Source of the DNA: Planctomycetota bacterium
GTDB taxonomy: Bacteria; Planctomycetota; PUPC01; DSUN01
Length of the DNA stretch: 64,000 nt
Reading direction: 5' to 3'
Assembly (NCBI GenBank): GCA_035527715.1
Contig: DATKZY010000187.1
Location: 49,388-113,387 of the forward strand
Shown: one piece after another, positions 1,395 through 64,000 of the stretch
How the letters are laid out: each line of letters opens with the position of its first letter
Position numbering within the stretch: the first letter of the stretch is position 1
Position numbers and translations under genes: made by a program
The notes under the pieces: generated by a model
What the model was told of the DNA's origin: nothing
The model's input: only the letters and a program-made list of their open reading frames with translations
Database searches by the model: none

Positions 1395-1414
1395 TTCGGA
1401 TTCCGGATTTCGGA
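1395..1414. repeat. Heptanucleotide tandem array: coding-strand ATCCGAA ATCCGGA ATCCGAA, three units, directly abutting the ATG of the 405..1394 gene
   Basis: The plus strand reads TTCGGAT TCCGGAT TTCGGAT. On the coding (minus) strand the last unit runs straight into the start codon (…ATCCGAAATG). Confidence 0.8.
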
Positions 1415-1574
1415 TGTCGCTCTCTCCCGGTGGCCTTCGCGTTGAGGGTACGCGCCGTCCGCGCCCCTGTCAAGTTCCCCTCGCCGCTTGCGAAAGGGCA
1501 TGGGCCGTGGTATTATCCCTTCCGCGTTGATGTACGGCGTCTCCTCGCCCCTCCGGAGCTTGCAGGGAGCATCC

Positions 1575-5579: not shown

Positions 5580-7073
5580 ATGGTGCAGGGAATGCCCGAC
5601 GGCCTGCGCGAAAAAGCGATCAGCGGCGCGAAGTGGCGGGTGCTCACCACCTACTCGACGAAGGGCGTGCAACTCGTCGGTGCCGTCATCTTCGCCTGGC
5701 TGCTGGACAAGAATGACTACGGCCTGATGGCCGCCGCGATGGTCGTCGTGAGCCTCATCCGCGCCTGCACCAGCCTCGGCATCCACTACGCCATCATCCA
5801 GCGCCGCGACCGCGTGCAGGAGGCGGTGGACACGGGCCTCGTCCTCCTCCTGGCCACGGGGGCCTTGAGCTACCTCGTCCTGCTGGCCGTGGGGCCGTTC
5901 ACCAAAGCCTATGCTCTCGACAAGGCGCTGATGTTGGCGCTCGGCCTCCTGTCGTTCTTCCGCCCCGTCGCCGCCGTGACCGAGGGCGTCCTGTACCGGG
6001 AGTTCCACTTCGGGCGGCTGTTCGTCGTCGAGGTGGGCAGCATGGTGCTCAGCACGGGCCTGGGCGTCGGGCTGGCCTGGGCGCTGCCGGCGGGCAGCCG
6101 CTACTGGGCGCTCGCAGCCTCGGGCCTCACGCGCGAGGCCCTGCACTCGCTGCTTGGATGGACGGTGTCGCCCATTCGCCCCAAGCTGCGGTTCGACCGG
6201 GGCATGGCCAGGGACCTCCTGCACTACGGTAAGTACCTGTGGGGGGCCGCCCTCGTGATGGTGCTCTACGGCAATCTGGAGCGGCTTGTCCTGGTGGAGC
6301 TGCTCACGGTGGGCGCTCTGGGCCTCTACGCGTTCGCGGCCACCTGGGTGTCGCAGGCGGGGCTGATCAGCGAGACGATCTTCGGCAGCGTGGCCGTCTC
6401 GGTCTACGCGAAGTTGCAGGACGACGTGCCGCGCCTGCGGACGAGCTACTGCCGCATCGTGCGGCTCTCGGCGCTCCTCTCGACCGCGCTGCTGGGGGGC
6501 CTCGTGCTGTTGGCGCCCGAGGCGGTGCCGCTTGCGTTCCCCGTCCGCTGGCTGCCCAGCGTGCCCATCTTCCTGGTGTTCGGGTTGTTCTACCTCGTGC
6601 GGGCGGTGGACACCACGACGGGGCAGCTCTACGTCGCCGTGGGCAAGCCGAAGTACAACATGTACCTCGGCGTCGTGAACCTGGCTGTTCTGGCCGCGGT
6701 TGTCGTGCCGCTGGTGCTGTGGCGGGGCGCCGTGGGCGCAGCCCTGGCCCTCCTGATCGCCCGGGTCGTCACGATGGTCTGCAACGCCTTCGTCCTGCGG
6801 CGCGTGCTCCGGTGTCGGCTGAGACTCCTGGTCCGGGTGGTCACGCCCGCGTTGAGGGCGGCGCTCGTGATGGCGTTCGCGGTGTGTGCGGGCCTCGTCG
6901 CCGCCTATCGGCACTGGGGCCTCATCGGCTGGCTGCCGCTGGGCGGACTGGTCGTGCTGGGCGGCGTCGCCTATGCCGCCGGCATCTTCTTCTTCGAGCG
7001 CGAGCTGTTCCGGGAGGTGGTGACCCTGCTGCGCGACGCGCTGAGGGGCAAGAAGGCGGGGAGCAATGGGTGA
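5580..7073 (+). CDS. Polysaccharide biosynthesis protein / Wzx-like oligosaccharide flippase (MOP superfamily)
   Basis: 497 aa with 12 or more predicted TM helices. The N-terminus (KWRVLTTYSTKGVQLVGAVIFAWLL) is typical of PST/Wzx family proteins. An alternative start lies at ATG 5592. Confidence 0.8.
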   Translation: MVQGMPDGLREKAISGAKWRVLTTYSTKGVQLVGAVIFAWLLDKNDYGLMAAAMVVVSLIRACTSLGIHYAIIQRRDRVQEAVDTGLVLLLATGALSYLVLLAVGPFTKAYALDKALMLALGLLSFFRPVAAVTEGVLYREFHFGRLFVVEVGSMVLSTGLGVGLAWALPAGSRYWALAASGLTREALHSLLGWTVSPIRPKLRFDRGMARDLLHYGKYLWGAALVMVLYGNLERLVLVELLTVGALGLYAFAATWVSQAGLISETIFGSVAVSVYAKLQDDVPRLRTSYCRIVRLSALLSTALLGGLVLLAPEAVPLAFPVRWLPSVPIFLVFGLFYLVRAVDTTTGQLYVAVGKPKYNMYLGVVNLAVLAAVVVPLVLWRGAVGAALALLIARVVTMVCNAFVLRRVLRCRLRLLVRVVTPALRAALVMAFAVCAGLVAAYRHWGLIGWLPLGGLVVLGGVAYAAGIFFFERELFREVVTLLRDALRGKKAGSNG

Positions 7074-8073
7074 GCCTGCCGAGCGCGATGCCCCGACGAG
7101 TTGTCCGCTCTGCGGCGGGACGGAGCGGCGGCGCCTCGTGACGAAGCGCGGCTGCGACGTCGTGCGCTGCCGCGACTGCCGCCTTGTCTACGTGTGGCCG
7201 CCCCCGTCGCGCGAGGAGGTCGAGGCCCTTTATTCGGCGGGGGACTACCACGCCGTCATTGACGAGTCGGAGCGGCGGCGCTACTTCGCCCGACGGCTTC
7301 GCCAGATCGAGAAGTTCGCCCCGCGGGGTGGCCGCATCCTTGACGTCGGCTGCTCGAAGGGCTACTTCCTGGAGGCGGCCCGGGCCAACGGCTGGGAGGC
7401 CGTGGGGGTCGAGTTGAACCGCCGAGCCGTCGAGGACGCGCGAGCGCGCGGTCTCGACGTGCGGCATGGCGACCTGTGCGACCTGGCGCTCGACGAGGAG
7501 AGCTTCGACGTGGTGACCCTCTTCGACGTCCTCGAGCACACGGCGGCCCCGCGGGCGCTGCTGGCCGCGTGCCGCGCGGTGCTGCGGCTCGGGGGCCTCC
7601 TGGTGGTGACGACGCCCGACATTGGGGGCCTGGTGCCGCGCGTCACCTACGGCCTCTTCGCCTGCACGCTGGGGGCGTGGGAGCATCCGACCCCGCCCGG
7701 CCACCTCGTGCAGTTCTCGCGGCGCACGCTGCGGCGGGCACTTGGGGCCGAGGGCTTCGAGGCCCTGCGGGAGCGCTCCGAGCACATCCCCATCGCCTAC
7801 AGCGTCGGGAAGCTCGAGAACTCGATCATGGCCGTGTTGGCCGGCCGCCACCGGAACCCCCCGACGGCCGATGGCCGACGGCCGACGGCGGACGGAAGAC
7901 GACAGTCGCCCCTCCGTCGGGTGCCGCGATACGGGGTGCGCGCGCTGTCGTGGCTGGCCATCGGGCTGGCCGGCCTGGCGGCGCGCGCCACGGGTTGGGG
8001 CGATTCGATGTTCGTCGCTGCACGGCGCACCCAGACCGAGGGCGGAAGGAGCGAGCCGCTTGAGAGCAGCTAG
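7066..8073 (+). CDS. Class I SAM-dependent methyltransferase with an N-terminal Cys4 zinc ribbon
   Basis: CPLCGG...CRDCR is followed by ILDVGCSKGYF (motif I) and LRLGGLLVVTTPD. It overlaps the previous gene by 8 nt. It also contains a 21-nt tandem duplication encoding PTADGRR twice at about 7858..7899. Confidence 0.8.
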   Translation: MGEPAERDAPTSCPLCGGTERRRLVTKRGCDVVRCRDCRLVYVWPPPSREEVEALYSAGDYHAVIDESERRRYFARRLRQIEKFAPRGGRILDVGCSKGYFLEAARANGWEAVGVELNRRAVEDARARGLDVRHGDLCDLALDEESFDVVTLFDVLEHTAAPRALLAACRAVLRLGGLLVVTTPDIGGLVPRVTYGLFACTLGAWEHPTPPGHLVQFSRRTLRRALGAEGFEALRERSEHIPIAYSVGKLENSIMAVLAGRHRNPPTADGRRPTADGRRQSPLRRVPRYGVRALSWLAIGLAGLAARATGWGDSMFVAARRTQTEGGRSEPLESS

Positions 8074-8250
8074 CGGCGAGCAGACATGGGCAGTTCAGGG
8101 GCAGGGACGAGGCCGGAGAGAAGAATTGCATACTTGTTCAAGTATGCAATTCTCTCCGTCAGGCACGGGCGTGCCGGGGGCGCGTCCGGGACGGCCCACG
8201 CTCCAGTCAACGGTCTCCCTGGAGCGAGAGAAGGAGTTGGCCGTTTGAAC

Positions 8251-8278
8251 TCCGCACTCCGCACTCCGCACTCCGCAA
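8251..8278. repeat. Heptanucleotide tandem array TCCGCAC x3 + TCCGCAA
   Basis: tccgcactccgcactccgcactccgcaa lies just upstream of the GTG at 8287, the probable start of the GT-C-like gene. Confidence 0.8.
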
Positions 8279-8286
8279 TCTCACAC

Positions 8287-10434
8287 GTGGCGCCTTTCGC
8301 CGTGCTGGCGGGGGTGGTGCTTCTCACGGCGATCGTGGTGCCGCCGTTCTTCGAGACGCCGGTGTACGACGACTGGTCGTTCGCGCCGCAGGTGCTGCGG
8401 CTGGCCGAGACGGGGCAGCTCCGCTACATGGGCTACAACGTGCCCTGCCTGCTGAGCCAGGTGCTCCTGGGGGCGGGGTGGCTGCGGATCGTCGGGTCGA
8501 GCTTCTCGAACCTGCGGATCCTCAACCTGATGGTCAGCGCGGCGGGCGCGTGCGGGGCGTACGGGGTGCTGGCGGAGCTGGGTTGCGGGCGCCGCAGGAG
8601 CCTGCTGGGCGCGCTCGTGCTTGTGGCGAACCCGCTCTACGTGTTCTTCTCCTACGCCTGGATGACCGATGTGTTCTCATTGGCTTTCATGCTCCTCGCG
8701 TTGTGGGCCTACCTGGTCGCCTTCAGGCGGGGAGGGGGTTGGGCTGCCGCCCTCGCGGCGTTCCTGGCGTTGGTCGCGATCCTCGACCGGCAGACGATGG
8801 CGATGCTGCCGGTGGGGGTGCTGTTGTACCTCGTGTGGCGGCGGCGCGGTGCGCCGTGGGGCCTCTGGGCCGCGGCGGTCGCGCCGCTCGTCCTGGGCTT
8901 CGTGGGGGTGAAGCTCGCCGAGATGATCCCCGACTACCAGAAGACGGGGCTGCCGATGCCGTCGCTCCGCAAGCAGTACGCGGCCGCTCCGCGTGCGGTG
9001 AGCATCGGCCTGGGGTATCTGGCCTTCTCGCTCCTGCCGCTGGGCCTGGCGTACGGGCGGGCGCTGTGGCGTGCCGCGGCGCAGCGGCCCGGGCGCGCGG
9101 TGGTGGCGGTGGTGAGCGCGCTGCTGCTCGTGGCGGCCCTCGGCGCCCCGGGGCCGCGGCTGACGGAGGGCCGGCCGTGGACGTTCGACCTGGCCGCGGT
9201 TGCCTCGCGGGCGAGCGTGCCGTGGATCGAGCGCGGCAGCGGGCTCCTCATCGGGCTGGGCACCGACGTGTTGCCTCGGTCGGCGGGGCTGGCGATCGGC
9301 GCCGCGTCGTGCGTGTGGCTGGCGGTCCTGCTGGTGGCGTCGTGGGGCCGACTGGTCGCGCCCCGGCTGGCGGGCCGAGTGTGCCTCGAGCCACGGGGCG
9401 CGCGGTTCGGCCGGGTGGCCGCCGTGGCCCTCGCCGCGGCGCTGGCGCTCCTCGTGGCCGGGCTGCCGCTGCTGAAGCACCTGGCGTCGAGGCTGGTCAC
9501 CGTCGCCTACGAGCGGGGCGCCGGGCGGGCGATGGGCCTCGACTACTGGCTCGCGACGGCTCGCGTGGCGACGGTCCACGCGGCGTTGGTCCTGGGCGCG
9601 GTGTTGGCGTTCGGCCTCAGCGAGTTGGGTTGGCAGGCGGCCGCGCGGCGCTCCGCGGCTTGGGCGGGCCGGCTCCGGGGCGTGTGGGTGCTGTGGGGCT
9701 TTGTCGAGCTCTTCGTCCTGGCGGTGCTCGTGGGCTTCGTCGGCGGCTTCGTCGGCGTGGTCGTGCTCCGGTGCCTCTGGCGCTGGCGCCGTGGGAAAGC
9801 GGAAATCCGGAATCCGGAATCCGAAATCCGAAACGGGGAGTCGGGGCCACTGCCCGACGGGCGAGCGTGGCTCGTGCTCCTGCCCGCAGGCATCTACGCC
9901 GTGTTCCTCGTCGGGTTGATGAGTCGCTGGGACATCTTTCCCCGGTACTTCCTGCCGCTGCTCGTGCCTGCCGCGCTGCTGGGTCTCGTCGTCGGGCGCG
10001 GGGCCAGGCCGTCGTGGCTCGCGCCCGGTCTGGCGTTCGCCGCCTTCCTTGTCTACGCGTGGGTGCGGACGGACCTCTACGTGACGCGGGTCGTGGCGAC
10101 GGAGCGGCTGCGTCGGGAGCTGGTCGCCGAGGGCATCCCGCCGAAGCAGATCCGCGCGGGCCTGGAGATTGACGGCTGGCACTGGCGCTGGTACTGCCTC
10201 GACCACCCCGACGAGGGCGGCACGACGACGGGGCAGGCGTGGTGGCCCGGAGGCCTGACCCCCGCACTGGTGGAGAACTACGTCATCTCCGACCGTCCCG
10301 CCCCCTTGAACATGTGGGGGATAGACCTGTCGAACTACGAAGTCCTGCGCACGGAGGCGGTTCGGGCGAGGCTCTGGCCCCGCCCGTGCCCGCTCTACGT
10401 GATGCGCCGCGTGCCGCTCCTGGCCCCCGACTAA
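8287..10434 (+). CDS. Large polytopic membrane protein, GT-C/GT39-like glycosyltransferase family
   Basis: The translation from the GTG at 8287 begins VAPFAVLAGVVLLTAIVVPPFF and has many TM helices. The track ORF starts at 8086, but its first 67 codons look non-coding and include the heptamer array. The protein contains an in-frame heptamer array at 9801..9834 (see that entry). Confidence 0.6.
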   Translation: MAPFAVLAGVVLLTAIVVPPFFETPVYDDWSFAPQVLRLAETGQLRYMGYNVPCLLSQVLLGAGWLRIVGSSFSNLRILNLMVSAAGACGAYGVLAELGCGRRRSLLGALVLVANPLYVFFSYAWMTDVFSLAFMLLALWAYLVAFRRGGGWAAALAAFLALVAILDRQTMAMLPVGVLLYLVWRRRGAPWGLWAAAVAPLVLGFVGVKLAEMIPDYQKTGLPMPSLRKQYAAAPRAVSIGLGYLAFSLLPLGLAYGRALWRAAAQRPGRAVVAVVSALLLVAALGAPGPRLTEGRPWTFDLAAVASRASVPWIERGSGLLIGLGTDVLPRSAGLAIGAASCVWLAVLLVASWGRLVAPRLAGRVCLEPRGARFGRVAAVALAAALALLVAGLPLLKHLASRLVTVAYERGAGRAMGLDYWLATARVATVHAALVLGAVLAFGLSELGWQAAARRSAAWAGRLRGVWVLWGFVELFVLAVLVGFVGGFVGVVVLRCLWRWRRGKAEIRNPESEIRNGESGPLPDGRAWLVLLPAGIYAVFLVGLMSRWDIFPRYFLPLLVPAALLGLVVGRGARPSWLAPGLAFAAFLVYAWVRTDLYVTRVVATERLRRELVAEGIPPKQIRAGLEIDGWHWRWYCLDHPDEGGTTTGQAWWPGGLTPALVENYVISDRPAPLNMWGIDLSNYEVLRTEAVRARLWPRPCPLYVMRRVPLLAPD
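9801..9834. repeat. Heptanucleotide tandem array GGAAATCC GGAATCC GGAATCC GAAATCC GAAAC, in-frame inside a CDS
   Basis: Period-7 repeat of the same GGAATCC/ATCCGAA family found at 1395. It encodes AEIRNPESEIRNGE. Confidence 0.8.
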
Positions 10435-17974: not shown

Positions 17975-18023
17975 AAATGCGGATTGCGGAATCCGGATTG
18001 CGGAATGCCGAATGCCGAATGTG
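17975..18023. repeat. Heptanucleotide tandem array of 7 units: AATGCGG ATTGCGG AATCCGG ATTGCGG AATGCCG AATGCCG AATGTGG
   Basis: It starts 3 nt after the TGA of the epimerase gene and fills the spacer before the GT4 gene. Confidence 0.85.
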
Positions 18024-18079
18024 GCACAGCCGCCCCCGGCTGTGCTGCCACAGGCAAGGGCGCCTGTGCCACACGCGCG

Positions 18080-23909: not shown

Positions 23910-24929
23910 ATGGACAGCGACCCGGGCTCGAACATTGCGGTGCTGCGGCCCACGGATGCGCTCGACGAGTGGGACCGGTTCGTAGACGAGTCGCCCCAGG
24001 GCTGCCTTTTCTGCCGCTCCTGGTGGCTCCAGGCGGTCTCCCCCGGCCAGTTTGAGGTTCTCGTGCTGCGTAAGGGTGGGCGAATCGTGGCCGGGATGCC
24101 ACTCGTCCGCTACCGCAGGTGGGGCTTCCAGGCCATCCACATGCCGCAGCTCACCCAGACGCTCGGCCCGCTCCTTGGGCCGCCGACCAGCGAGAACTAT
24201 GAGAAGCAGCTCTCGAACGAGATGGAGCTTCTGGCCGACCTCGTCGCGGCGATCCCACGGGTTGCCCACACGAGCTTCTTCTGCCACTACAGCTTCACGA
24301 ACTGGCTGCCCTTCTACTGGGCCGGCTACCAGCAGACCACCCGCTACACCTACGTCATCGAGGACCTGAGCGACCCCGAGGCCGCGTTCGCCCGCTTCGC
24401 GCACTCGAAACGCAAGAACGTCAAGAAGGCCGAGCGCCTCGTCGAGGTGCGCGAGGACATGCCGCCCCGCGAGTTCTACGACCACCACGCGGCGAGCCTC
24501 CGGAAGCAGGGCGACGCGATCTTCTACACGTACGAGCTCTTCGAGCGCATCCACCGCGCCACAGCCGAGCGCGGCGCGGGCAAGACGTGGCTCGCCGTGG
24601 ACGCCGAGGGTCACGTGCACTCCGCGATCTTCGTCGTCTTCGACGCCAGGTCGGCCTACTACCTGATCAGCACGATTGACCCCGACCACCGCAGCAGCGA
24701 CTCGGCGACGCTGCTGGTCCAGCGCGCCATCGGCTACGTCGCCAGCCGCACGAGGCGGTTCGACTTCGAGGGCTCGATGATCCAGAGCGTCGAGGGCTCC
24801 TTCCGCAAGTTCGGCGCCGTCCAGAAGCCCTACTTCCACATCCACAGGAACGACCTGCCGCTCGTCGTGAGGCTGGCGCTCGCGGCGCGCACCGAGGTGG
24901 CCAGGAGCTTTCGCAAGCTGGGGCGTTGA
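23910..24929 (+). CDS. FemAB-like GNAT (Acetyltransf_6), paralog of the 3238..4446 gene
   Basis: 339 aa. The region FARFAHSKRKNVKKAERLVEVRED...DFEGSMIQSVEGSFRKFGAVQKPYF is typical of FemAB-related proteins of exosortase EPS loci. Confidence 0.75.
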   Translation: MDSDPGSNIAVLRPTDALDEWDRFVDESPQGCLFCRSWWLQAVSPGQFEVLVLRKGGRIVAGMPLVRYRRWGFQAIHMPQLTQTLGPLLGPPTSENYEKQLSNEMELLADLVAAIPRVAHTSFFCHYSFTNWLPFYWAGYQQTTRYTYVIEDLSDPEAAFARFAHSKRKNVKKAERLVEVREDMPPREFYDHHAASLRKQGDAIFYTYELFERIHRATAERGAGKTWLAVDAEGHVHSAIFVVFDARSAYYLISTIDPDHRSSDSATLLVQRAIGYVASRTRRFDFEGSMIQSVEGSFRKFGAVQKPYFHIHRNDLPLVVRLALAARTEVARSFRKLGR

Positions 24930-26128
24930 TGCCTACTCCGCGATCCGCAACCCGCGACCCGCAGTCCCGGTCAGGCCCTCTCCGTGTCCTCGTCCTCGCC
25001 GGTATCTTCCCCTACGAGGGGAACGAGACGTTCGGCCTGTCCACCTGTCGCCGCACCATCGAGCTGGCGCGGCTGTGCGACGTCAAGGTGCTGGCGCCGA
25101 CGTGGCGGCGGGGCCTCCCGGCCAGGGAGGCGTTGGCCGGCGTGGACGTGCTCCGCCCGCGGTGGCGCCGCGTGCCGAAGCTGGGCGTGCTTGTGGACGG
25201 CTTTCGCTACGCGGCGCGCGCGGCCAGGGCGATTGACGCCATCCGGCCCCCCTTCGACTTCGACCTGATAGATGCCCACTGGCTCTACCCCGACGCCTTC
25301 GCCGCCGTGCGCCTCGGGCGGCGGTTCGGCAGGCCGGTCGTGGTCACAGGCCGCGGCAGCGATGTGGACGAGTTTCTCGTCCGCTGGCCCGTGCGATACT
25401 TCGCCCGTGCGGCGCTTCGCGGGGCGGCCCAGATCGTTGCCCTCACGCGCCACCACGAGCAGAAGATGATCGAGGCCGGCGCCCCGGCCGGGCGAATCGC
25501 CGTGATCGCCAACGGCGTGGACACGGCGCTCTTCCGCCCGGGCGACCGCGGGGAGGCGCGGCGGGCGTTGGGCCTGCCGCCCGACGGTTTCGTGCTGTTC
25601 TCCGCCGGCGCACTCGTCGAGGACAAGGGCCACCACCACCTCATCCGGGGGCTTTCGCTCCTCGGCAGCGAGGCCCAGGCGAGCCTCTACATCGCTGGGC
25701 CAGGCTCGTACCGGGAGACGCTCCTGCGGCTCATCGAGTCGCTGAGCCTTCGGGACAGGGTCGCCCTCCTCGGGCGCGTCGAGCAGCGGCAGATGCCGCT
25801 CTGGTATCAGGCGGCGGACTTCTTCTGCTTCGGGAGCTATCACGAGGGCTGCCCAAACGTGGTTCTGGAGGCTGTCGCGTGCGGCACCCCGGTTGTCTCG
25901 ACCAACGTCGGTGGCATCCCCGACCTCGTCGAGGAGGGGCGCTCGGGCATTCTCTTCAAGCCGCGCTCCGACGAGGCATTCGCCTCCGCCCTTCGCACGG
26001 CGCTGGAGCGGCCCTGGGACCGGGCCGCGATTGCCGCCCTGGGCGCCCGACGCTCCTGGGCACACGTCGCCGCCGAATACCTGGCCCTCTTCGAGCGGCT
26101 CTTGGCAGGCAAGCATGGAGCAGTCTGA
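24926..26128 (+). CDS. GT4-family glycosyltransferase
   Basis: The C-terminus has FSAGALVEDKGHHHL...CFGSYHEGCPNVVLEAVACGTPVVST. It overlaps the neighbouring genes at both ends. Confidence 0.85.
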   Translation: MMPTPRSATRDPQSRSGPLRVLVLAGIFPYEGNETFGLSTCRRTIELARLCDVKVLAPTWRRGLPAREALAGVDVLRPRWRRVPKLGVLVDGFRYAARAARAIDAIRPPFDFDLIDAHWLYPDAFAAVRLGRRFGRPVVVTGRGSDVDEFLVRWPVRYFARAALRGAAQIVALTRHHEQKMIEAGAPAGRIAVIANGVDTALFRPGDRGEARRALGLPPDGFVLFSAGALVEDKGHHHLIRGLSLLGSEAQASLYIAGPGSYRETLLRLIESLSLRDRVALLGRVEQRQMPLWYQAADFFCFGSYHEGCPNVVLEAVACGTPVVSTNVGGIPDLVEEGRSGILFKPRSDEAFASALRTALERPWDRAAIAALGARRSWAHVAAEYLALFERLLAGKHGAV

Positions 26129-39058: not shown

Positions 39059-42000
39059 ATGCCGATGCCCCAGGTGCACTTCGCGGTCGGCATGGGAGCG
39101 GCCTCGCTGCTGGGCGTGCCGCTGCTCGTGCTGCGCCGGCGCTGGCTCCTGTGGCTGCCGCTCGTCATGACCGCGTGCGGCGCGCTGGCGCTGGTGCCCG
39201 ACGTGGTAGCGCGGGGCAGGGACTTCCTGCCCGGGCCCGCGGCCGAGCGGGGGCGCACGCACACCCCCGCGGCCAACGTGTTCTTCCTGCACACGTGGCT
39301 CGACCGGCAGCCGGCCCTCTACGCGCCGGCCGTGGCCGACCTGGCGTTCCAGGCCGTGGCGCTGATGTACCTGGCCTCCGCCATCGGCTATGCGGCCTTC
39401 CTCCGCTGGGGGCTCCCTCGGATGGCCGAAGCGGGGGAGGCGTTAGCGCGGCTGCGGCGCGAGACGGCGAGCTATCGCCCCGTGGCCGCCCTGCTCGGCC
39501 TGCTGCCGCTCGTGGTGGCCGGCGCGGCGGCGGTGTGGACGCTGTGGCCCAAACGCCCCGCGGGCGCGCCCGCCCAGGGGCAGGAGGCGCTCGACCCCGC
39601 GCAGTGGGCGCAACTTGTCTCGCGGCGCCTCGGCGTCGCGGTCGGCCAGCGCCTCGGCGTCGTCCATTCGACATGGGACAGCCATGGGGCCTGGCTGTGC
39701 GGCGACCTGGGGGCGAGGGTGTCGCCCGACGCGCCGGGCGCCGCCGAGCTCGTCGAGCGCGCGAAGGCCAATGGCTGCGATTTCGTGGCGTTGCTGGACG
39801 GCGCGAGCCCTGACGACCTTGCCGCGGCGCGACAGAAGCACCCCGACATGGCCCTCCTGGCGGGCCTGGTGTGGGACGCGCCGACGAGGCGGGGGGCCGA
39901 GCGAGCCATCGTGCTGGTGCCGCCGCAAGCGCGCGAGGCCGCGGTGCTGGCCGACTTCCGCCGGCAGTTCGCCGGCCCGGGCGGATCGGCAGAGGATGCC
40001 CTGCGATGGCTCGACGCCCACGGCGCCTCGCCCAAGGCACAGCCCGTGGTCCTGGCGGCACAGGCTTCCAGCCTGTGGGCCACAGGCAAGATGCCTGTGC
40101 CACCGGGCAGCGGGGAGGGCTGGCCGGATCTCTTCTCGTGGCGGCGGACGAATGGGCTGTTCATCGGCTTCCTCGGCCTTCCGGGCGCCGAACGCCTGTC
40201 CGCCCGCGAGGCCCGCAGCCAGTGGGACCCCCGCGTGGCCGCCGTGGGGGGCATGTGGGACAGGTTCCTGGACGGGGGCTTCCGGCTCTGGGGCGCGGCC
40301 GCGGCATCCGGCTTCCAGGACCCTGCCCGGCAGTTCTGGCCGGGCGAGTTCGCCCGCACCCACGTGTGGTGCCGCGGGCGCGCCGCGGAGGACGTGTTGG
40401 GCGGCCTCCGGGACGGGTGCTTCTGGGCCGTCGAGGGCGCGGTCGTGCGCGCGCTGGACTTCGGGGTCAACGCCCCGACGCTCGAGCGGCCCGCGCGGAT
40501 GGGCGAGGTGGCCCGCGTGGCGCCGGGCGACGAGGTGACCGTGGAGCTGGCCCTGGACGTGCCGCCCACCGACTTCGCCGGGCGCCCGAGCCAGCTCGAC
40601 GAGGTGGAGCTGGTCTCGAACTTCGGCGGCGAGGCCGAGGTCGTCGCGCGGTTCCGCAACGTGCACGACGTGCGCCGCCTCGAGCACCGCCTGCCGCCGG
40701 CCCAGGACGCCAACGGCGGCCTCGGCTTCTACGTGCGCGCCCGAGGCTCCCGCCGCGTGGATGCGGGAGCGCGGCTGTTCTTCTACACGAACCCCATCCG
40801 CGTCCTCGTGCGGCCGGGGCTGGCGCCGCCGGCGCCGCCGGGCGCGGCCCCCGTCCGCGTGGCCTCGGCGCACCGCCCCGTCGAGCCCGCGCCGCCGAAG
40901 CCCAAGACGGCGACGCCCGTAGCGCCGCCGCCCGAGGACGACGTGCGGGCGCGGCTCGCCGCCGTCGGCCTGCCGGCCGGCGTGAGCCCCGTGTGCGTCG
41001 AAACGTTTCAGAAGCCGCCCGGGCGCCAGTGGCTTGGCGCCCACGTGAGCATCATCGGCGACCGCGGCCCGGCCCTGGGCGACGAGGAGCTGCGCGTCGA
41101 GCTCCTCCAGCGCATCCCCCTTGGCGAGGCCACCCGACTGTTCTTCCGGTGCTACGCCTTGGACTGTGCCCGGCTGACGCTTGTCGCGCGCCCCGGCGGC
41201 GGAGCGGCCGCCTGCCAGGCCGTCCGCGAGCTCCCCGAGCGTCAGTGGGTCGAGTTCGACCTCTCGCTCGGCGACGACTTCCTGCCCCTGCGCGGGACCT
41301 CGGGCCGCCTGGGGCCGCCGGGCGAGGTCCAGGCCCTCGAGTGGGCTGGCGCCCGCCTCGGGCCGCTCTCGCGCTTCTACGTGACCGATGTCGTCGTCTA
41401 CGAGCCCACGCCTGCCAGCCGCCAGGGGCTGGCCCTGAAGCAAGCGGTGGACCTGGACGCGGCGCTGCGCGAGACGGCGGGCCGAGGGGCGACCGCAGCC
41501 ATGCAGCAACGGGCCCAGGCCGCCCTGGACCGCCTCGCCGCCTGGCGCGCGCGGCTCGACCCCAGACGAGGGCCACCGACGCCCGACGAACTGGCCGCCG
41601 TCCGCCGCGACCTGGCCGAGTTGGCCGCCGAGAGCCGTTGTCTTGGCTGGCAGGCCGCCATGACTCGCACCTTCCGCCTCGGCGACCCCAGGTTCGCCGT
41701 CACCCTCGCCGCCCCCGGCCAGCGCATCTCGGCGCGCAACCCCGCGCTCAACCCGTCGCCACAGATCGCCCGCTCGTGGGACCTGGCCGCCGCCGGCGCC
41801 GAGGCCGAGAGCGTCCAGATCGTCGTCATCGCCCTCTGGGACAGGCTCGAGGCCGTCGCCGTCGGCGTCTCGCCGTTCGTCCCTGTGGCTCGGGATGGGG
41901 CCGAGGGCCCGCCCGGCGGCGAGCGGGCCGCCACGCTGCCGACCTCGCTTGCCCTCGTGGGCGAGGCGATGGTGCGCCCAGGCCCCCTCCTCGCCCCCGA

Positions 42001-43882
42001 GCAGGCGGGGTGGATGCCCGACCCGTTGCTGCCGTTCCAGCTCTTCGACGTCGAGCCGGGCGAGGCCCGCTCGCTGCTTCTCACCGTGGAGGTGCCGCCC
42101 GACCTGTTGCCCGGCGAGTACGAGAGCGAGGTCACCGTGCAGCCGCGGGGCATGGAGCCCGTGCGAGTGGCGGTGCGCCTGCGCCGCTGGGGCTTCACCC
42201 TCGAGGGCCACCCCCTCGCGGTGTTCGGCCCGCTCGACGAGCGGGCGCTCAGCGCGCACTGCGCCTCCGGCAAGGCCGTTCCCCAGCCGCTTCGCCGCGC
42301 GCTCTACGAAATGCTGCTGCGCCACGGCGTGACCCCGGTGCCCCTGCTCGGCGGCGACGAGGCGGCGGACCTCGAGGAGGCCCTCTTCTGCCTCGAGGCC
42401 GGCGCGGGCGTAGTGGTCCTGCGCGAGGCTGCCTCCGTGGCCCCCGGGCCGCGGGAGGCCGACGTGGCTCGCGCCGCGCGCTGTGCCGACAGGATTCGCG
42501 AGGCCGGCTGGGGGCGCCGCGGCGCGCTCCTCCTGCCCCTGGCGCCCGACGCCGAGAGGGAGCGCTCCCGGATGGCCGCCTTCGCCCGCACCCTCGCCCG
42601 CGAGCACCCGGCGCTCCTGCTCCTCGCGGGGGGCGACAGCGACCCGCCCCTCGACCTGGTGACCCACGTGTGGCGCCGTCCCCTGGGCGCCGACCCGCCG
42701 CGCCGGCCCCACGACAACGACGTGGATGTCCGCCTCTCCCGCACCGCCCGCCGCGAGGGCTGGGAGCTTGTCGCCGGCTCGCCCGAATCCCCCGTGCCCG
42801 GTCTCCTCGTCACCAGCCCACTCCACCACGTCCGCCTCCTGCCCTGGCTCGCCTGGCAGCACGGCGTCCGAGCCCTCTTCCTCCGCGGCGTGACCCGGTG
42901 GCAGGAGGACGACGATTTGCGCGACGGCGCCCTCGTCTACCCGCTCCCTCTTCCCGCACACCCCGCTCCCGGGGGGGGAGGGTGCTGCGCCTCGCTGCGC
43001 CTCGTGGCCCTCCGCGACGGCATCGAGGACTACGCCTGCCTGCGCCTGCTCTGGGACCGCGCGCGCCTGCTGCGCGAGCGCGCCGCCGCACGACACGGGC
43101 CCCTCCTGGCCGCGGCGGAACGCCTTCTCGCCGACGCCGCCGGCGGCATCGGCACCCTCCAGCGCCCGTGCCGCGACCCACACGTGCTCGCGACCCTGCG
43201 CGCGCGGCTGGCCCGCGAGCTCGAGCGTCTCGACGCCGCCTGGTGGGCCGAGGTGGACGCCGCGAAGGACCTCCCGCCTCCGCCGCCCGCCCTCACCGCG
43301 AAGCCGGGCGACGGCCAGATCGTCCTCACCTGGGGCAGGAGCCCCGACGCCAAGGTCGTCGGCTACAACGTCTTCCGCAGCCGCGCTCCCGAGGCCGGCT
43401 TCGCGCGCCTCAACGCCCTTCCCATCGAGGGCCTCACCTACGTGGACCGCTCGGTGGCCAACGACGTCACCTACCACTACTTCCTGCGCTCGTGCCGCGA
43501 CGGGCTGGTGGACGGCCCTCGGAGCGCCCTGGCCTCCGCCCAGGCCCGCCCGGCGCCGCGCATCGTGTGGCTGCCCGGCGCCACGCCCCGCCACGGCGTC
43601 GCCGGGCCCTGCCGCATCGCGCTCCGCGTCGAGGGGCCCGGCACGGCCGGCCTCCTGCCCCTCGTGCGCCCGCAGATGGACTACGCGGCCGCCGGCGCCG
43701 CGTTCGACGGCTTCGAGGACATGACGCGCCAGGACGACGGCACCTGGGCCTTCGACATTCCCGACCTCGGCTGGCGCCGCCTCGCCGGCGAGAGGCTCCG
43801 CATCCAGGCGCGCATCGTGGACCGCCAGGGCCGCGTCGTCACGCCCCCGGTCGAGCGCAGCGAAACCATCGGCGCGCCCTGA
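39059..43882 (+). CDS. Large (1607 aa) membrane-anchored multidomain protein: N-terminal membrane domain, central DUF4091-like (glycoside-hydrolase-associated) region and C-terminal fibronectin type III-like domain
   Basis: The frame is continuous with high GC3. WMPDPLLPFQLFDVEPGEARSLLLTVEVPPDLLPGEYESEVTV resembles DUF4091. The Fn3-like region is PGDGQIVLTWGRSPDAKVVGYNVFRS. A double CACAGGC hairpin is inserted in-frame at 40057..40101. Confidence 0.65.
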   Translation: MPMPQVHFAVGMGAASLLGVPLLVLRRRWLLWLPLVMTACGALALVPDVVARGRDFLPGPAAERGRTHTPAANVFFLHTWLDRQPALYAPAVADLAFQAVALMYLASAIGYAAFLRWGLPRMAEAGEALARLRRETASYRPVAALLGLLPLVVAGAAAVWTLWPKRPAGAPAQGQEALDPAQWAQLVSRRLGVAVGQRLGVVHSTWDSHGAWLCGDLGARVSPDAPGAAELVERAKANGCDFVALLDGASPDDLAAARQKHPDMALLAGLVWDAPTRRGAERAIVLVPPQAREAAVLADFRRQFAGPGGSAEDALRWLDAHGASPKAQPVVLAAQASSLWATGKMPVPPGSGEGWPDLFSWRRTNGLFIGFLGLPGAERLSAREARSQWDPRVAAVGGMWDRFLDGGFRLWGAAAASGFQDPARQFWPGEFARTHVWCRGRAAEDVLGGLRDGCFWAVEGAVVRALDFGVNAPTLERPARMGEVARVAPGDEVTVELALDVPPTDFAGRPSQLDEVELVSNFGGEAEVVARFRNVHDVRRLEHRLPPAQDANGGLGFYVRARGSRRVDAGARLFFYTNPIRVLVRPGLAPPAPPGAAPVRVASAHRPVEPAPPKPKTATPVAPPPEDDVRARLAAVGLPAGVSPVCVETFQKPPGRQWLGAHVSIIGDRGPALGDEELRVELLQRIPLGEATRLFFRCYALDCARLTLVARPGGGAAACQAVRELPERQWVEFDLSLGDDFLPLRGTSGRLGPPGEVQALEWAGARLGPLSRFYVTDVVVYEPTPASRQGLALKQAVDLDAALRETAGRGATAAMQQRAQAALDRLAAWRARLDPRRGPPTPDELAAVRRDLAELAAESRCLGWQAAMTRTFRLGDPRFAVTLAAPGQRISARNPALNPSPQIARSWDLAAAGAEAESVQIVVIALWDRLEAVAVGVSPFVPVARDGAEGPPGGERAATLPTSLALVGEAMVRPGPLLAPEQAGWMPDPLLPFQLFDVEPGEARSLLLTVEVPPDLLPGEYESEVTVQPRGMEPVRVAVRLRRWGFTLEGHPLAVFGPLDERALSAHCASGKAVPQPLRRALYEMLLRHGVTPVPLLGGDEAADLEEALFCLEAGAGVVVLREAASVAPGPREADVARAARCADRIREAGWGRRGALLLPLAPDAERERSRMAAFARTLAREHPALLLLAGGDSDPPLDLVTHVWRRPLGADPPRRPHDNDVDVRLSRTARREGWELVAGSPESPVPGLLVTSPLHHVRLLPWLAWQHGVRALFLRGVTRWQEDDDLRDGALVYPLPLPAHPAPGGGGCCASLRLVALRDGIEDYACLRLLWDRARLLRERAAARHGPLLAAAERLLADAAGGIGTLQRPCRDPHVLATLRARLARELERLDAAWWAEVDAAKDLPPPPPALTAKPGDGQIVLTWGRSPDAKVVGYNVFRSRAPEAGFARLNALPIEGLTYVDRSVANDVTYHYFLRSCRDGLVDGPRSALASAQARPAPRIVWLPGATPRHGVAGPCRIALRVEGPGTAGLLPLVRPQMDYAAAGAAFDGFEDMTRQDDGTWAFDIPDLGWRRLAGERLRIQARIVDRQGRVVTPPVERSETIGAP
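40057..40101. repeat. Palindromic element family C: GGCACAGGC-ttcca-GCCTGTGGGCCACAGGC-aagat-GCCTGTGCC, nested hairpins, in-frame in a CDS
   Basis: 24 nt are identical to 28593..28616 in the GT2 gene. It encodes [17 protein letters not shown]. Confidence 0.75.
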
Positions 43883-45343: not shown

Positions 45344-46258
45344 GTGAATGCGATGAGCTGCGACCTCGAGGAGTACTTCCAGGTGCAGTGCTGCGACGGG
45401 GTGATCGCGCCCGAGGCGTGGGACACCATGCCTTCGCGCCTGGAGCCGAGCACGGAACGGGTGCTGGCGCTGCTCGACGAGGCAGGCGTGAAAGCGACCT
45501 TTTTCGTCCTGGGCTGGAACGCCGAGCGGCACCCCGACCTGGTGCGGCGCATCGCGGCTGCGGGCCACGAGATCGCCTCGCACGGCTACGCGCACAAGAT
45601 GATCCCCGACCAGAGGCCCGAGGAGTTCCGGGCCGACGTGTGCCGGGCCAAAGCGCTGCTGGAGGACCTCACGGGCCGGCCCGTGCTGGGCTACCGGGCG
45701 CCGACCTTCTCGATCACCGAGCGCTCGCGGTGGGCCATCGCCATCCTGGCCGAGGCCGGCTACCGCTACGATTCGAGCGTCTTCCCCATCCGCCACGACC
45801 GCTACGGCATCCCCGACGCCCCGCGATTCCTGCATGAGCTGAACGGGGCGGAGTGCGGAATGCGGGGTGCGGAATGCGGGGTGCGGAATGCGGAAGGGAC
45901 GGACAGGCCGCACCTCATTGAGTTCCCGCCCACGACTCTGCGGGTGCTGGGCACGAACGTGCCGGTGGCGGGCGGCGGCTACCTGCGGCTCCTTCCCGCG
46001 CGGCTGATTCTGGCCGCGCTGCGCCGCGTGAACCGCCTGGGGCACCCGGCCATCGTGTACTTTCATCCCTGGGAGCTGGACCCCGAGGCGCCGCGGCTGC
46101 CGCTGCGGGGCCTGCGCCGCTTCCGCCACTACGTGGGCCTTGCCCGCGCGGCCGCCAAGTTGCGGCTCCTGCTGCGCGGCCTCGCCTTCACCACTGCCGC
46201 CACGGTCGTCGGGCACTGGGTGGCCGCGCACCACAAGGGGGAAACAGCGAATGGGTAG
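45344..46258 (+). CDS. Exosortase-system-associated polysaccharide deacetylase (TIGR03006-like, DUF3473 + NodB). It carries an in-frame 49-nt heptamer array.
   Basis: VNAMSCDLEEYFQV...ATFFVLGW...ASHGYAHK...LGYRAPTFS matches the XrtA/PEP-CTERM-locus deacetylase family. An alternative start is ATG 45352. The array at 45848..45896 encodes GAECGMRGAECGVRNAEG. Confidence 0.8.
   Translation: MNAMSCDLEEYFQVQCCDGVIAPEAWDTMPSRLEPSTERVLALLDEAGVKATFFVLGWNAERHPDLVRRIAAAGHEIASHGYAHKMIPDQRPEEFRADVCRAKALLEDLTGRPVLGYRAPTFSITERSRWAIAILAEAGYRYDSSVFPIRHDRYGIPDAPRFLHELNGAECGMRGAECGVRNAEGTDRPHLIEFPPTTLRVLGTNVPVAGGGYLRLLPARLILAALRRVNRLGHPAIVYFHPWELDPEAPRLPLRGLRRFRHYVGLARAAAKLRLLLRGLAFTTAATVVGHWVAAHHKGETANG
45848..45896. 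repeat. Heptanucleotide array of 7 units: GCGGAGT GCGGAAT GCGGGGT GCGGAAT GCGGGGT GCGGAAT GCGGAAG, in-frame in a CDS
   Basis: It also reads as a 14-mer (GTGCGGAATGCGGG) repeated three times. Confidence 0.85.
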
Positions 46259-59636: not shown

Positions 59637-59657
59637 CTGAAATCGGCAATCGCAAAT
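59637..59657. repeat. Heptanucleotide array TCTGAAA TCGGCAA TCGCAAA, intergenic
   Basis: Same unit family as 26124 and 28251. It lies about 160 nt upstream of the 59816 gene. Confidence 0.7.
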
Positions 59658-59696
59658 TTTTCCAAGCCCCCCTCCCCCACTGCCCCCCGCCCCGCG

Positions 59697-62800: not shown

Positions 62801-64000
62801 CACTACGGCGTGAAGCTCGACGCCGAGGCCTGGGACCGCTTGGTCACCTGGATTGACCTCAACACCCCCTACTATGGCACCTGGACCGACATGGGCCACA
62901 ACCCTGGCAAACAGCGCGAGCGGCGCCTCGAGCTGGCCCGGCTCTACGCCAACCTCGACACCGACCCCGAAGCCGACGCCGGTCAGCCCCCCGCCAAGCT
63001 CCAGGACCCGACCCCCCCTCCCCTTCCCTCTGCCGTACCCGAACACCGAACACCGAACACCGATGGCCCGGCTTTGGCCGGCTGGCCCTTCGACAAGGCC
63101 GAGGCCCAGCGTCGCCAGGCCGCCTTGGGTGTGGCGACGCGCTCGGTCGAGCTCGCGCCCGGGGTCAAGCTCGACCTCGTCCTCATCCCCGCCGGCGAGT
63201 TCCTCATGGGCGACCCCAGCGGCTCGCCCGACGAGCAGCCCGTCCACCGCGTCAAGATCGAGCGGCCCTTCTGGATGGGCCGCTGCGAGGTCTCCAACGA
63301 GCAGTTCGCCTGCCACGATTCCGCCCACGATAGCCGCGTGGAGGACAAGAATACCTACCAGTTCGGCGTCCACGGCTACCCCTGCAACGAGCCCAAGCAG
63401 CCCGTCGTCCGCCTCTCGTGGCACCAGGCCGTGGCTTTCTGCGAGTGGCTCTCGAAGAAGACCGGCGAGCACGTCACCCTGCCGACGGAGGCCCAATGGG
63501 AGTGGGCCTGTCGGGCAGGGACGGCCACGCCCTTCTGGTATGGTGGCCTCGACGCCGATTTCTCGAAGTGCGCCAACATGAGCGACGCCAAGATGCGCGA
63601 GTTCGCCAGCAACCCCTACACCATCTGGCAGCCCCAGCCCAACGCCACGAAGTACGACGACTGGATTCCCAAGGACACCCGCTTCAACGACGGCTATCTC
63701 GTGGCTGCCCCCATCGGCACCTACCAGCCCAACCCCTGGGGCCTCGCCGACATGCACGGCAACATGGCCGAATGGACCCGCTCACCCCATCGCCCCTACC
63801 CGTCCGACGGTTCGGTCACGCGTCACGCGTCACGCGTCACTGAACCCGCTGCGGCCACGCGCTACGTCGTCCGCGGCGGCTCCTGGCGCGATCGTCCCTA
63901 CCGCTGCACCTCCGCCTATCGCCTCGCCTACCCCGCCTTCCAGCGCCCCTACAACGTCACCTTCCGCATCGTGTCCGAGGGCCTCGTCAAGACCGCGGCG
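59816..64000 (+). CDS. Large secreted multidomain protein, 3'-truncated at the window end: signal peptide, NPCBM-like carbohydrate-binding domain, beta-propeller-like middle, two CXXCH motifs, C-terminal FGE-sulfatase (SUMF1/formylglycine-generating-enzyme-like) domain
   Basis: I translated this by hand from 59816 and found no stop to 64000; GC3 is high throughout. The NPCBM-like part is VKVGWGNLIVNNNHTKAGLRIANKKYEHGFWAHAPSALCF...GSVRFHVLD. CVGCHE and CIGCHN are the CXXCH motifs. FGE motifs include RVKIERPFWMGRCEVSN...HQAVAFCEWLS...RGGSWRDRP. It contains a family-B hairpin at 61262..61290 and a GTCACGC array at 63815..63842. Confidence 0.75.
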   Translation, partial: MSPTEKPMLRACLACVLAMAAFAAEAAAPRRARGAVSLPSAADPAYYVKKATWQETMLASREALATAQAEAPKESAFKPYVTGVIRGGQPAQQISLDVSTLDQLWLLADVGDDNYDSDQAIWGEPTLVARDGTRVPLTTLKPVSVKVGWGNLIVNNNHTKAGLRIANKKYEHGFWAHAPSALCFALGKKYVRFEAWAGIDATATSHGSVRFHVLDKAGRTSDLDALWSLVGRDFPNASREMQWERQDRIWDDDWRPGDLAMLGARYAKCAATRAKSMAAEAQKLAPAVADAVALQKVRELYYRAHTIEENLAKLGDLKFEPLRLALADLIETHGDTYPKGREFLQRLDALEKSASADDKAADPERKAKLVEEFESLKREALLANPLLSFDKLLVVRRSARNLALPANWQGNSCLPRSGLDNEIAILSLRAVGGASLPRVQTLYKPEGGRFVGDVDLHFDADRLLFSSLDAKNKWQVFEMTLKPPAGSQPAGGYPIRQLTGEQPDVDSYDACYLPDGRIMFCSTAPFVGVPCVFGSSHVAMLYRMDADGKNIRQLCFEQDHDWCPAVLNNGRVLYLRWEYTDTPHSQTRILFHMNPDGTEQMEYYGSNSYWPNGVFYARPIPNHPTKVAGIVTGHHGVRRMGELVIFDPGKGRHEASGAIQRIPERGKEVEPIIRDGLVNASWPKFLHPYPLSDKYFLVACQPTAKSLWGLYLVDTFDNMLLLHEEPGYAILEPVPLQKTLKPPVIPDKADPKRKDAVVYMVDVYQGDGLKGVPRGTVKKLRIFSYHFAYHGMGGLLGVVGMDGPWDPKRIVGTVPVESDGSALFRVPANTPISIQPLDAEGKALQLMRSWMTAMPGEVLSCVGCHERQNSSPPARQTLAQARPPAEIEPWRGPARAFSYPREVQPVIDKYCIGCHNGEKRPDGKVAADLRGDKRLADFRLVTPGNGGGNAGRFSVGYGELHRYVRRNGIEGDYHLLTPLEFHADTTELVQLLQKGHYGVKLDAEAWDRLVTWIDLNTPYYGTWTDMGHNPGKQRERRLELARLYANLDTDPEADAGQPPAKLQDPTPPPLPSAVPEHRTPNTDGPALAGWPFDKAEAQRRQAALGVATRSVELAPGVKLDLVLIPAGEFLMGDPSGSPDEQPVHRVKIERPFWMGRCEVSNEQFACHDSAHDSRVEDKNTYQFGVHGYPCNEPKQPVVRLSWHQAVAFCEWLSKKTGEHVTLPTEAQWEWACRAGTATPFWYGGLDADFSKCANMSDAKMREFASNPYTIWQPQPNATKYDDWIPKDTRFNDGYLVAAPIGTYQPNPWGLADMHGNMAEWTRSPHRPYPSDGSVTRHASRVTEPAAATRYVVRGGSWRDRPYRCTSAYRLAYPAFQRPYNVTFRIVSEGLVKTAA
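61262..61290. repeat. Palindromic element family B, second copy: CCTCCCGCGGGTT-cgc-AACCCGCGGGAGG, in-frame within a CDS
   Basis: A 13-bp perfect stem, identical to 33158..33186 except for one compensatory pair (A-T becomes G-C). It encodes KPPAGSQPAGGYP. Confidence 0.75.
63815..63842. repeat. Heptanucleotide array GTCACGC x3 + GTCACTG, in-frame in the FGE-domain gene
   Basis: It encodes SVTRHASRVTEP. The same array occurs at 38187. Confidence 0.8.

Follow-up and report, generated by a model that had tools for sequence, protein, structure and literature searches.

Heptanucleotide repeat arrays dispersed through a planctomycete surface-polysaccharide locus are probably slippage-born microsatellites filtered by selection

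Heptanucleotide repeats form the commonest class of long simple sequence repeats (SSRs) in prokaryotes, and polymerase slippage has been proposed as their origin (Mrázek, Guo & Shah 2007, as summarised in PMC4679880 and PMC4692102). This work concerns a dispersed family of heptanucleotide arrays in a stretch of 64,000 nucleotides from Planctomycetota bacterium (GCA_035527715.1, contig DATKZY010000187.1, positions 49,388 to 113,387), here called the window. The heptamer dominance and sporadic lineage distribution that these summaries give for long SSRs with 5-11 nt units are also found here. As summarised there, in-gene units are mainly multiples of three, whereas heptamers are common within the genes of the window, where they are in frame. 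With moderate confidence, we regard the window arrays as members of this known bacterial class, namely heptanucleotide microsatellites born by slippage and filtered by selection. They differ in their host phylum, in units that lack G-tracts and in how many of the arrays are translated.

The closest relative of the window arrays is the Xanthomonas GGGAATC family, which, like the Nostoc GGGGAYT family, consists of dispersed heptamers with ~180 arrays per genome (Rehm et al. 2015, PMC4692102). The Xanthomonas unit is one base from a rotation (CGGAATC) of the window unit GGAATCC. A preference for about four units, a bias towards non-coding DNA and inverted stem-loop arrangements are common to these families and the window, and the Xanthomonas arrays resemble those of the window in being retained between the same genes while their sequence changes (PMC4692102). 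The Xanthomonas and Nostoc units carry GGG or GGGG, whereas those of the window carry GG in place of the G3-4 tract per unit, so that the G-quadruplex rationale is inapplicable here. Both families are under-represented in genes, whereas nine of the 15 window arrays overlap coding sequence, and the host is a planctomycete.

The cyanobacterial short tandemly repeated repetitive (STRR) sequences of Calothrix and Nostoc are, like the window arrays, a dispersed family of short heptamer tandems that uses several unit types in one genome and lies mainly at the edges of genes. They belong to a different phylum, and with a host among the Planctomycetota the window arrays fall outside the STRR family. 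The window units presumably also differ in sequence from STRR1-3. The TAACTGA repeats of marine Beggiatoaceae, cyanobacteria and Bacteroidetes stand in 2-6 copies a few nt upstream of starts (MacGregor 2015, PMC4679880) and, like the window arrays, are spread across phyla. Their unit contains stop codons and they are essentially intergenic, whereas the window units are free of stop codons on the sense strand and often translated; of the arrays here, only a minority abut a start (two abut an ATG, and 7/15 lie within ±20 nt of a start). A last comparison is neuO of the Escherichia coli K1 phage CUS-3, with an AAGACTC variable-number tandem repeat directly after the start of a polysaccharide-modifying enzyme, as at 8249 in the window, and with three units encoding one heptapeptide. 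The neuO repeat has 3-53 units, commonly 20; it is OFF in 66% of genomes, and minority alleles amount to 7% within a single culture (PMC13001214), whereas the window arrays have 2-7 units, are all ON and show no length variation in the assemblies compared.

The window has a G+C content of 70%, and nearly all of its genes lie on the plus strand. According to Pfam it is a surface-polysaccharide locus of the exosortase/PEP-CTERM type, comprising GT2, GT4 and GT39 glycosyltransferases, an epimerase, radical-SAM/B12 enzymes, an ATP-grasp protein, several polysaccharide deacetylases (including one of the XrtA-system DUF3473 type), exosortase EpsH and EpsI, and a giant secreted protein with NPCBM, HZS-alpha and FGE-sulfatase domains. 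Arrays were detected with Tandem Repeats Finder (TRF) and with a strict and a sensitive lag-autocorrelation scan, and dinucleotide shuffles served as the null (20 for the strict scan). The strict scan returned six arrays at period 7, two at period 14 (twice 7) and none at other periods from 4 to 15, with approximately zero in the shuffles. The sensitive scan returned 11 segments at period 7 versus 0-3 at other periods and 0.2 in the shuffles. There are 12 clear and three weak period-7 arrays (24945, 26124 and 59637), with 2.3-6.9 often imperfect units and a median of 4.9. They have the unit size (5-11 nt), the excess over composition and the predominance of 7 nt that define Mrázek-type long SSRs, and their period specificity supports an earlier sequence-only reading, which had assigned them to the dispersed STRR or long-SSR kind of heptanucleotide family.

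Eight of the ten loci named in that reading are robust, whereas 26124 (~2.3 units) and 59637 (three imperfect units) are weak and not listed by TRF; the arrays at 7861 and 63039, the inverted pair 34436/34518 and the weak array at 24945 had been missed. Two motifs that it had related to the family, at 48930 and 51784, are single units without weight, the latter being part of a palindrome. CGGAAT-like and GTCACGC units are indeed present, but a picture of two types is too narrow, since at least six occur: CCGRAAT, GCGGRWT (complement ACTCCGC), GTCACGC, CCGACGG, TGCAAAA and CCGAACA. Rfam gave no match in the window at gathering thresholds; no known RNA family accounts for the arrays. The arrays at 38188 and 63815, identical in unit, were considered as copies of one mobile element, which was ruled out because their flanking sequences are unrelated. 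Gene starts were refined with orthologs and public annotations, and the arrays are the following:

1393..1419, minus strand, (CCGRAAT) x3.9 array in a 5' leader, from TRF and the sequence.
7861..7901, plus strand, (CCGACGG) x5-6 array, from TRF, the strict scan and Pfam limits.
8249..8277, plus strand, perfect (ACTCCGC) x4.1 array, from TRF and the NCBI protein.
9802..9833, plus strand, (GRAATCC) x4.6 array, from TRF and ortholog comparison.
17976..18021, plus strand, (GCGGAWT/GCCGAAT) x6.6 array, from TRF.
24945..24963, plus strand, weak CCGCRAC x2.7 array (TRF score 31) in the first codons of the GT4 gene 24926..26128.
26124..26146, plus strand, weak GAAATCG x2.3 array, from the sequence.
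28252..28275, plus strand, (CGGAAAY) x3.4 array, from TRF and ortholog comparison.
34436..34471, plus strand, (TGCAAAA) x5 array, left arm of an inverted pair, from TRF and folding.
34518..34556, plus strand, (CATTTTG) x5.6 array, right arm of the inverted pair, ending 15 nt before ATG 34571.
38188..38224, plus strand, (TCACGCG) x5.3 array within the conserved gene 37631..38647, encoding HASRVTRHASL.
45848..45895, plus strand, (GCGGRRT) x6.9 array of 48 nt in the XrtA-system deacetylase gene 45353..46258.
59637..59660, plus strand, weak array CTGAAAT CGGCAAT CGCAAAT in a spacer, ~155 nt before ATG 59816, where the giant gene starts.
63039..63063, plus strand, perfect (CCGAACA) x3.6 array in the Pro-rich linker of the giant protein (59816..>64000), encoding PEHRTPNT.
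63815..63840, plus strand, perfect (GTCACGC) x3.7 array in an FGE-sulfatase domain loop, encoding VTRHASRVT.

Two arrays are 5' leaders that abut a start codon. On the minus strand, the 1393 array reads ...ATCCGAAATCCGGAATCCGAAATG and reaches into ATG 1394 of the methyltransferase gene 405..1394, of which it provides the A and the T; that the array meets this ATG had been recognised before. A Trm112p domain begins at residue 3 of this product (Pfam), the NCBI, JGI and ENA annotations use the same start, and the gene has no in-frame start further upstream of ATG 1394. The 28252 array does lie at the start of a GT2 gene, but it ends 2 nt before ATG 28278 and not on the A of the ATG as had been read; the array is also translated as 12 additional residues at the C-terminus of the deacetylase 27206..28285.

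The arrays at 8249, 17976, 24945 and 26124 occupy the first codons of genes. The 8249 array directly follows TTG 8245, the start of a GT39/PMT_2 glycosyltransferase (..10434), and is translated as NSALRTPHSAIS; the NCBI product has the N-terminus MNSALRTPHSAIS. The 26124 array encodes residues 4-9 (SEIGNR) of a deacetylase-like gene, three codons past ATG 26115, and includes, as the earlier reading stated, the stop codon TGA 26126-26128 of the upstream GT4 gene. The 17976 array, described there as filling a stop-to-start spacer, begins 4 nt after the epimerase stop 17972 and spans ATG 18005, the annotated start of the GT4 gene (..19174); public records carry the 389-amino-acid product that begins at this ATG. 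A strong hairpin at 18019-18075, TGTGGCACAG...CTGTGCCACA (z -3.5), lies directly 3' of this array, which would put it in coding sequence should GT4 translation truly begin at ATG 18005.

Six arrays (7861, 9802, 38188, 45848, 63039 and 63815) are internal to genes and read through in frame, including the four that had been called frame-compatible. The 7861 array lies C-terminal to the catalytic domain in the methyltransferase gene 7066..8073 (encoded peptide PTADGRRPTADGRR), and the 9802 array lies in a GT39 loop between hydrophobic segments (encoded peptide AEIRNPESEIRN). At 45848 a loop of the DUF3473 domain is lengthened, with 146 residues versus 129 profile positions, and the 63815 array falls in a variable loop just N-terminal to the conserved VVRGGSW motif, as aligned to solved FGE-family chains. 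The remaining arrays are intergenic, namely the weak one at 59637 and the inverted pair 34436/34518, which lies in the 150-nt spacer that separates the ATP-grasp from the radical-SAM gene and is predicted to form a hairpin of -64.1 kcal/mol (z -5.95). A C-rich tract with a run of 10 C (59666-59706, ~110 nt upstream of ATG 59816) is found beside the 59637 array. Because 7 and 3 are coprime, a heptamer array encodes one cyclic heptapeptide whatever its frame, such as EIRNPKS, SAIRNPQ, HASRVTR or AECGMRN, and the peptides of sense-strand arrays are hydrophilic and without stop codons.

The non-random position claimed before is confirmed within the window: six of the 15 arrays lie in its non-coding 9.6% (P=0.002), and the seven arrays that touch the ±20 nt around a start codon compare with 5% expected (P ~5e-6). 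These two enrichments are largely one fact, because nearly every spacer here adjoins a start codon. Near-start arrays (1393, 28252, 34518 and perhaps 17976) may instead be RNA-level cis-elements of the 5' leader, either sites for an RNA-binding protein (S1, cold-shock, CsrA-like or ring-shaped HutP/TRAP-like) or unstructured leaders that tune initiation, an explanation we hold to be unlikely though worth keeping in view. It has a precedent in the same proposal for the TAACTGA arrays of Beggiatoaceae (PMC4679880), and the near-start fraction fits it, as does the 1393 array, the only one by a minus-strand gene, which is flipped together with that gene. Start-proximal arrays are also predicted unpaired by RNA folding, but the unpaired probability from -20 to +5 is the same at array-bearing and other starts (0.42 versus 0.42), and the minimum free energies differ marginally, being a little weaker at array-bearing starts (P=0.04, n=7). 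In an operon-like locus with short spacers, moreover, intergenic nearly equals near-start. The supposition that the host uses few Shine-Dalgarno (SD) sequences is not supported by the starts themselves: 23 of 47 approximate starts carry an SD-like motif versus a background of 18%, and the SD-like AAGGAG lies upstream of the GT39 TTG 8245.

Related loci were obtained by a protein-seeded scan of metagenome contigs, which yielded syntenic loci at 60-84% amino-acid identity, namely L121 and L124 (21 kb each) and the shorter L122, L123, L125 and L126. Gene calls in these foreign loci are crude and based on open reading frames (ORFs), and counts of arrays deep in ORFs are rough. Among 756 kb of contigs chosen by protein and not by repeats, 14 arrays have period 7 versus four at other periods from 4 to 12, concentrated in few genomes (six in L124 and five in L166). 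Abundance is sporadic and lineage-specific, as in the long SSRs of Mrázek: the window and L124 are rich, L124 carrying seven arrays in the syntenic 21 kb, mostly at sites other than those of the window, and L121 has none in its 21 kb.

Single sites give the same picture of gain and loss. The 28252 array is absent at all six orthologous loci, which marks it as dispensable and weighs against a leader function; the deacetylase that reads through it is 12 residues longer than the six orthologs. Its last unit, CGGCAAT+G, matches the ancestral sequence that precedes the ATG in L121, with which the terminal CGGCAATG is shared, and the presence of this native heptamer suggests that the array arose by its local duplication. 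At the 26124 junction, L124 and L126 have (AAATCGC/AAGTCGC) x4 arrays and L121 and L122 have none, while the spacer orthologous to 34436/34518 is 20-83 nt long and free of arrays in L124 and L121. Compared with L121, the window has the 38188 array as an insertion, and in L124 the same loop carries an array of a different unit. L124 also has in-frame insertions of 16, 22 and 11 amino acids in its deacetylase, ATP-grasp and radical-SAM orthologs, respectively. The XrtA deacetylase loop, from PRFLHELNG to LIEFPP, has 3-4 residues in distant homologs (≤70% identity) and 16-45 residues with a 7-residue periodicity in close relatives. At the 45848 site, L203 (82% identity) has the same seven units with point substitutions only, and in L204 (81% identity) that loop carries another unit, (GAAACTC) x4.7. 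Across the syntenic contigs, the arrays thus appear as lineage-specific insertions at loops, linkers and N-termini of otherwise conserved proteins.

The 5' end of the GT39 gene is instructive about unit number. The window, L376 and L377 all begin with TTGAA and have equal unit numbers, while the units are (ACTCCGC)4 in the window, (AATCCGC)4 in L377 and a mixture in L376. As the units differ and the count is equal, slippage would have homogenised the units over evolution while selection for the frame held the count. The GT39 loop that bears the 9802 array has a (GAAACGC)-type array in L376, a hexamer array in L377 and none in a homolog at 49% identity. These L377 hexamers, (GAGGAC)n encoding EDEDEGRGRGR, stand where the window has heptamers, and so do the CGAGGA-type repeats upstream of a GT2 gene at 1146-1178 of L123.

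The locus, whose proteins stand at NCBI as HUT35641-HUT35677, has also been assembled from several JGI and ENA samples. For a comparison within the strain, three contigs from two other samples were available (L201, 14,027 nt; L202, 11,516 nt; L375, 15,676 nt). Against the window they show no indel and, in this order, one, zero and one substitution. None of the four arrays that they cover (34436, 34518, 38188 and 45848) changes in length; the 38188 array is identical in L201 and L375 and the 45848 array in L201 and L202. Two population single-nucleotide polymorphisms were seen. At 41330, L375 (sample 3300031566) has T for C, which turns CAG into TAG and splits the 1607-amino-acid gene 39059..43882 into products of 757 and 833 amino acids; at 49208, L201 has G for T. 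Identical products of array-bearing proteins were found among cluster members, with no length variants, and orthologs at 64-82% protein identity (L203, L376 and L377) have exactly the same unit number.

The sequence-only reading had proposed contingency behaviour at these arrays, that is, loci of the neuO type in which a one-unit change at 8249, 26124, 24945 or an in-ORF array shifts the frame and would switch polysaccharide-modifying enzymes on and off within a population. We consider this quite improbable. The unit length is not a multiple of three, the locus makes surface polysaccharide, and the tracts at 8249, 26124, 9802, 38188, 45848 and 63815 are placed so that a unit change shifts the frame; 8249, directly after its TTG, and 26124, three codons after its ATG, have the neuO architecture. 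The homogenisation of units within lineages also implies that slippage happens over evolutionary time. The arrays are, however, short and imperfect (2.3-6.9 units versus 3-53 in neuO), each one in the window is in the ON frame, and neither the contigs that carry polymorphisms nor the cluster members show a length variant or OFF allele, in a comparison of consensus assemblies from few lineages; the equal unit numbers of the orthologs point the same way. Nor are the arrays specific to surface-polysaccharide genes: they also occur in the radical-SAM and ATP-grasp genes of relatives, in the FGE-sulfatase domain of the window and in free-living bacteria of many phyla. One observation in relatives would fit switching: in L124 (7751-7967), the ortholog of the deacetylase-like gene 26115..27221 offers no in-frame start codon (ATG, GTG or TTG) from its array up to the conserved segment TLLLLTVDTE, and CCA/GCG stands where L126 and the window use TTG/ATG. 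This may represent an OFF allele, a non-canonical start or an assembly error. Overall, the arrays are unlike a hypermutable contingency locus such as neuO, and hypermutability is absent, or not detectable, in the available tests.

The reading that we favour, that of slippage-born microsatellites under selection, would explain these observations as follows. Strand slippage would duplicate a native heptamer in place, the array would grow to ~4-7 units, further slippage would homogenise the units, and point substitution would later let the array decay. Loops of seven bases exceed what MutS-type mismatch repair handles. The arrays would escape this repair, in a lineage that, like some others, seems to favour the 7-nt step strongly. 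Selection in a genome that is 90% coding would then act as a filter, and arrays would last only where 21-49 extra bases are harmless, namely in short spacers, 5' leaders at starts, first codons, surface loops and linkers; within genes, only the total length would have to keep the frame. N-terminal and loop peptides, the C-terminal extension of one deacetylase, the long hairpin formed by inverted arrays and a latent capacity for low-rate frameshifting would be side effects, and the arrays would have no dedicated function.

Arrays of this kind also occur in other phyla. Species-representative genomes were scanned with the pattern GRAATCCGRAATCCGRAAT, which gave at least 120 loci, and the matches listed come from Verrucomicrobiota, Acidobacteriota, Planctomycetota, Chloroflexota, Myxococcota, Bacteroidota, the candidate phyla radiation and others. 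Among the matches listed, 222 arrays have period 7 versus 22 of all other periods, and AATCCGC, ACTCTCC and ACTCCGC are further shared units. A full-text literature search for literal GAAATCC and CGGATTT arrays gave no relevant match, only an unrelated single matching string. In IMG/VR, contigs with an exact three-unit array were counted, with two same-composition permutations of GAAATCC as controls:

Array units: GAAATCC, 22 contigs; GCGGAAT, 34 contigs; TAACTGA, 107 contigs.
Permutation controls of GAAATCC: first, 3 contigs; second, 4 contigs.

A number of observations thus weigh against plain slippage and selection. A small vocabulary of units recurs across phyla. Array lengths peak sharply at 32-33 nt, with 106 of the 222 arrays among the matches listed measuring 31-34 nt. 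When the orientation of GAAATCC-type arrays was scored by explicit unit matching, a long-ORF ATG followed within 30 nt downstream on the sense strand in 23/131 cases and on the other strand in 3/131, against 9.7% at random positions. At some sites both the array and its unit number have survived a protein divergence of 25-36%, and inverted array pairs that form hairpins recur, both here and in an acidobacterial metagenome-assembled genome (MAG). The population test is itself weak, as consensus assemblies hide minority alleles. Neutral slippage alone does not predict the vocabulary, the length mode or the sense orientation before starts, and for that reason the rival explanations are kept. Collapse of k-mers during assembly was tried as the sole cause of the mode and was rejected, as the mode is also found in long-read and complete assemblies; short-read assemblies do hold fewer long arrays.

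The MAG in question, Acidobacteria SZAS-13 (L038, L055, L069, L080, L084, L087, L095 and L104), has 40 period-7 arrays in 64 kb, with units that include GAAATCC, ACTCTCC and AAGACTY (the neuO unit type) and with many inverted pairs; for 13 of the 40, a long-ORF ATG lies at most 40 nt downstream on either strand.

For a role of the arrays in the 5' leader, this proximity in SZAS-13, the sense orientation of GAAATCC arrays 1-30 nt upstream of long-ORF ATGs across phyla (23 versus 3), the units common to several phyla and the fixed length mode of ~32 nt are favourable. Only ~18% of GAAATCC arrays lie near a start, however, and a sense bias inside ORFs can be explained by the hydrophilicity of the encoded peptide (EIRNPKS versus GFRISDF).

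The same data could indicate an element that acts at the level of DNA, such as a site for a nucleoid protein or regulator, a two-tetrad G-quadruplex or a cruciform, or an array written by a sequence-specific enzyme that adds ~32 nt of templated heptamer, for example at break repair. Of all the explanations weighed, this strikes us as very improbable. The mode of 32-33 nt is close to three helical turns, the shared vocabulary includes a Xanthomonas-like unit (GGGAATC versus CGGAATC), inverted pairs recur, and heptamer-rich and heptamer-poor lineages are sisters. No candidate protein or enzyme has been identified, however, many arrays lie in coding sequence, where function as a DNA site is unlikely, and the origin of the 28252 array in situ from a native heptamer favours local duplication; contraction that depends on length could also produce the mode. 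A G-quadruplex is rejected for most units because they carry only GG: GGGG occurs only in alternate units of the 45848 array, and other units are, for example, CGGAAAT, GGAATCC, ACTCCGC and GTCACGC.

A broader proposal is that the cross-phylum vocabulary (GAAATCC/GGAATCC, GCGGAAT/AATCCGC, ACTCTCC, AAGACTY and TAACTGA) with its preferred arrays of ~32 nt represents a shared cis-element system, with either a conserved factor that binds RNA or DNA as its reader or a dedicated enzyme as its writer. Such a system would place arrays often in sense orientation just upstream of or inside the 5' ends of genes, and sometimes as inverted hairpin pairs. The arrays of the planctomycete would then be a single case of this system and no passive microsatellites. 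We rate its existence as quite improbable.

Besides the heptamers, the window holds other repeats. A dispersed palindromic element of ~57 nt, GGGGTCACATCTTCATTTGGCAC...GTGCGAAATGAAGATGTGACCCC, has full copies at 21784-21840, 22772-22825, 26222-26277 and 38467-38523 and a half copy near 45189-45205; its arm motif has nine matches versus 0.01 expected. Two of the copies, those at 26222 and 38467, fall within conserved genes as in-frame insertions specific to the window, SPLHFAHGGYVPNEDVTPG and GSHLHLAPGGEVRNEDVTPEA, relative to the orthologs, and the element resembles the Rickettsia palindromic elements. A perfect AT-rich palindrome (8116-8156, GAGAGAAGAATTGCATACTTG-TTC-CAAGTATGCAATTCTCTC) upstream of the GT39 gene may be an operator, and the related core GCAAGTATGCA occurs in a palindrome at ~51799 (51790-51815) and twice upstream of the GT2 ortholog of L126 (5450-5510). 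Between the radical-SAM gene and the gene 37631, inverted short-period repeats at 37508-37614 form a hairpin with a GGATGAAT-type arm and a CCAT x8.5 arm, the same architecture as the inverted heptamer pair 34436/34518. The minus strand at 51875-54736 encodes a 953-amino-acid protein with TIR, double-zinc-ribbon and WD40 beta-propeller parts, whose ~64% G+C and weaker third-position bias than its neighbours suggest recent acquisition.

Heptanucleotide repeats are the commonest long microsatellites of bacteria, with origin and function unsettled, and this locus and its relatives give an unusually clear picture of them. Arrays are gained and lost fast between related genomes, they are tolerated in conserved enzymes as loop insertions with a 7-residue periodicity, and their unit number can stay constant while the units change in concert. 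On the practical side, gene callers set starts inconsistently around the arrays, and spurious 'hypervariable' loops of low complexity are to be expected when proteins of these lineages are aligned. If the vocabulary, the 32-33 nt mode and the sense orientation reflect a protein that reads or writes the arrays, they would belong to a new and widespread regulatory or mutational system.

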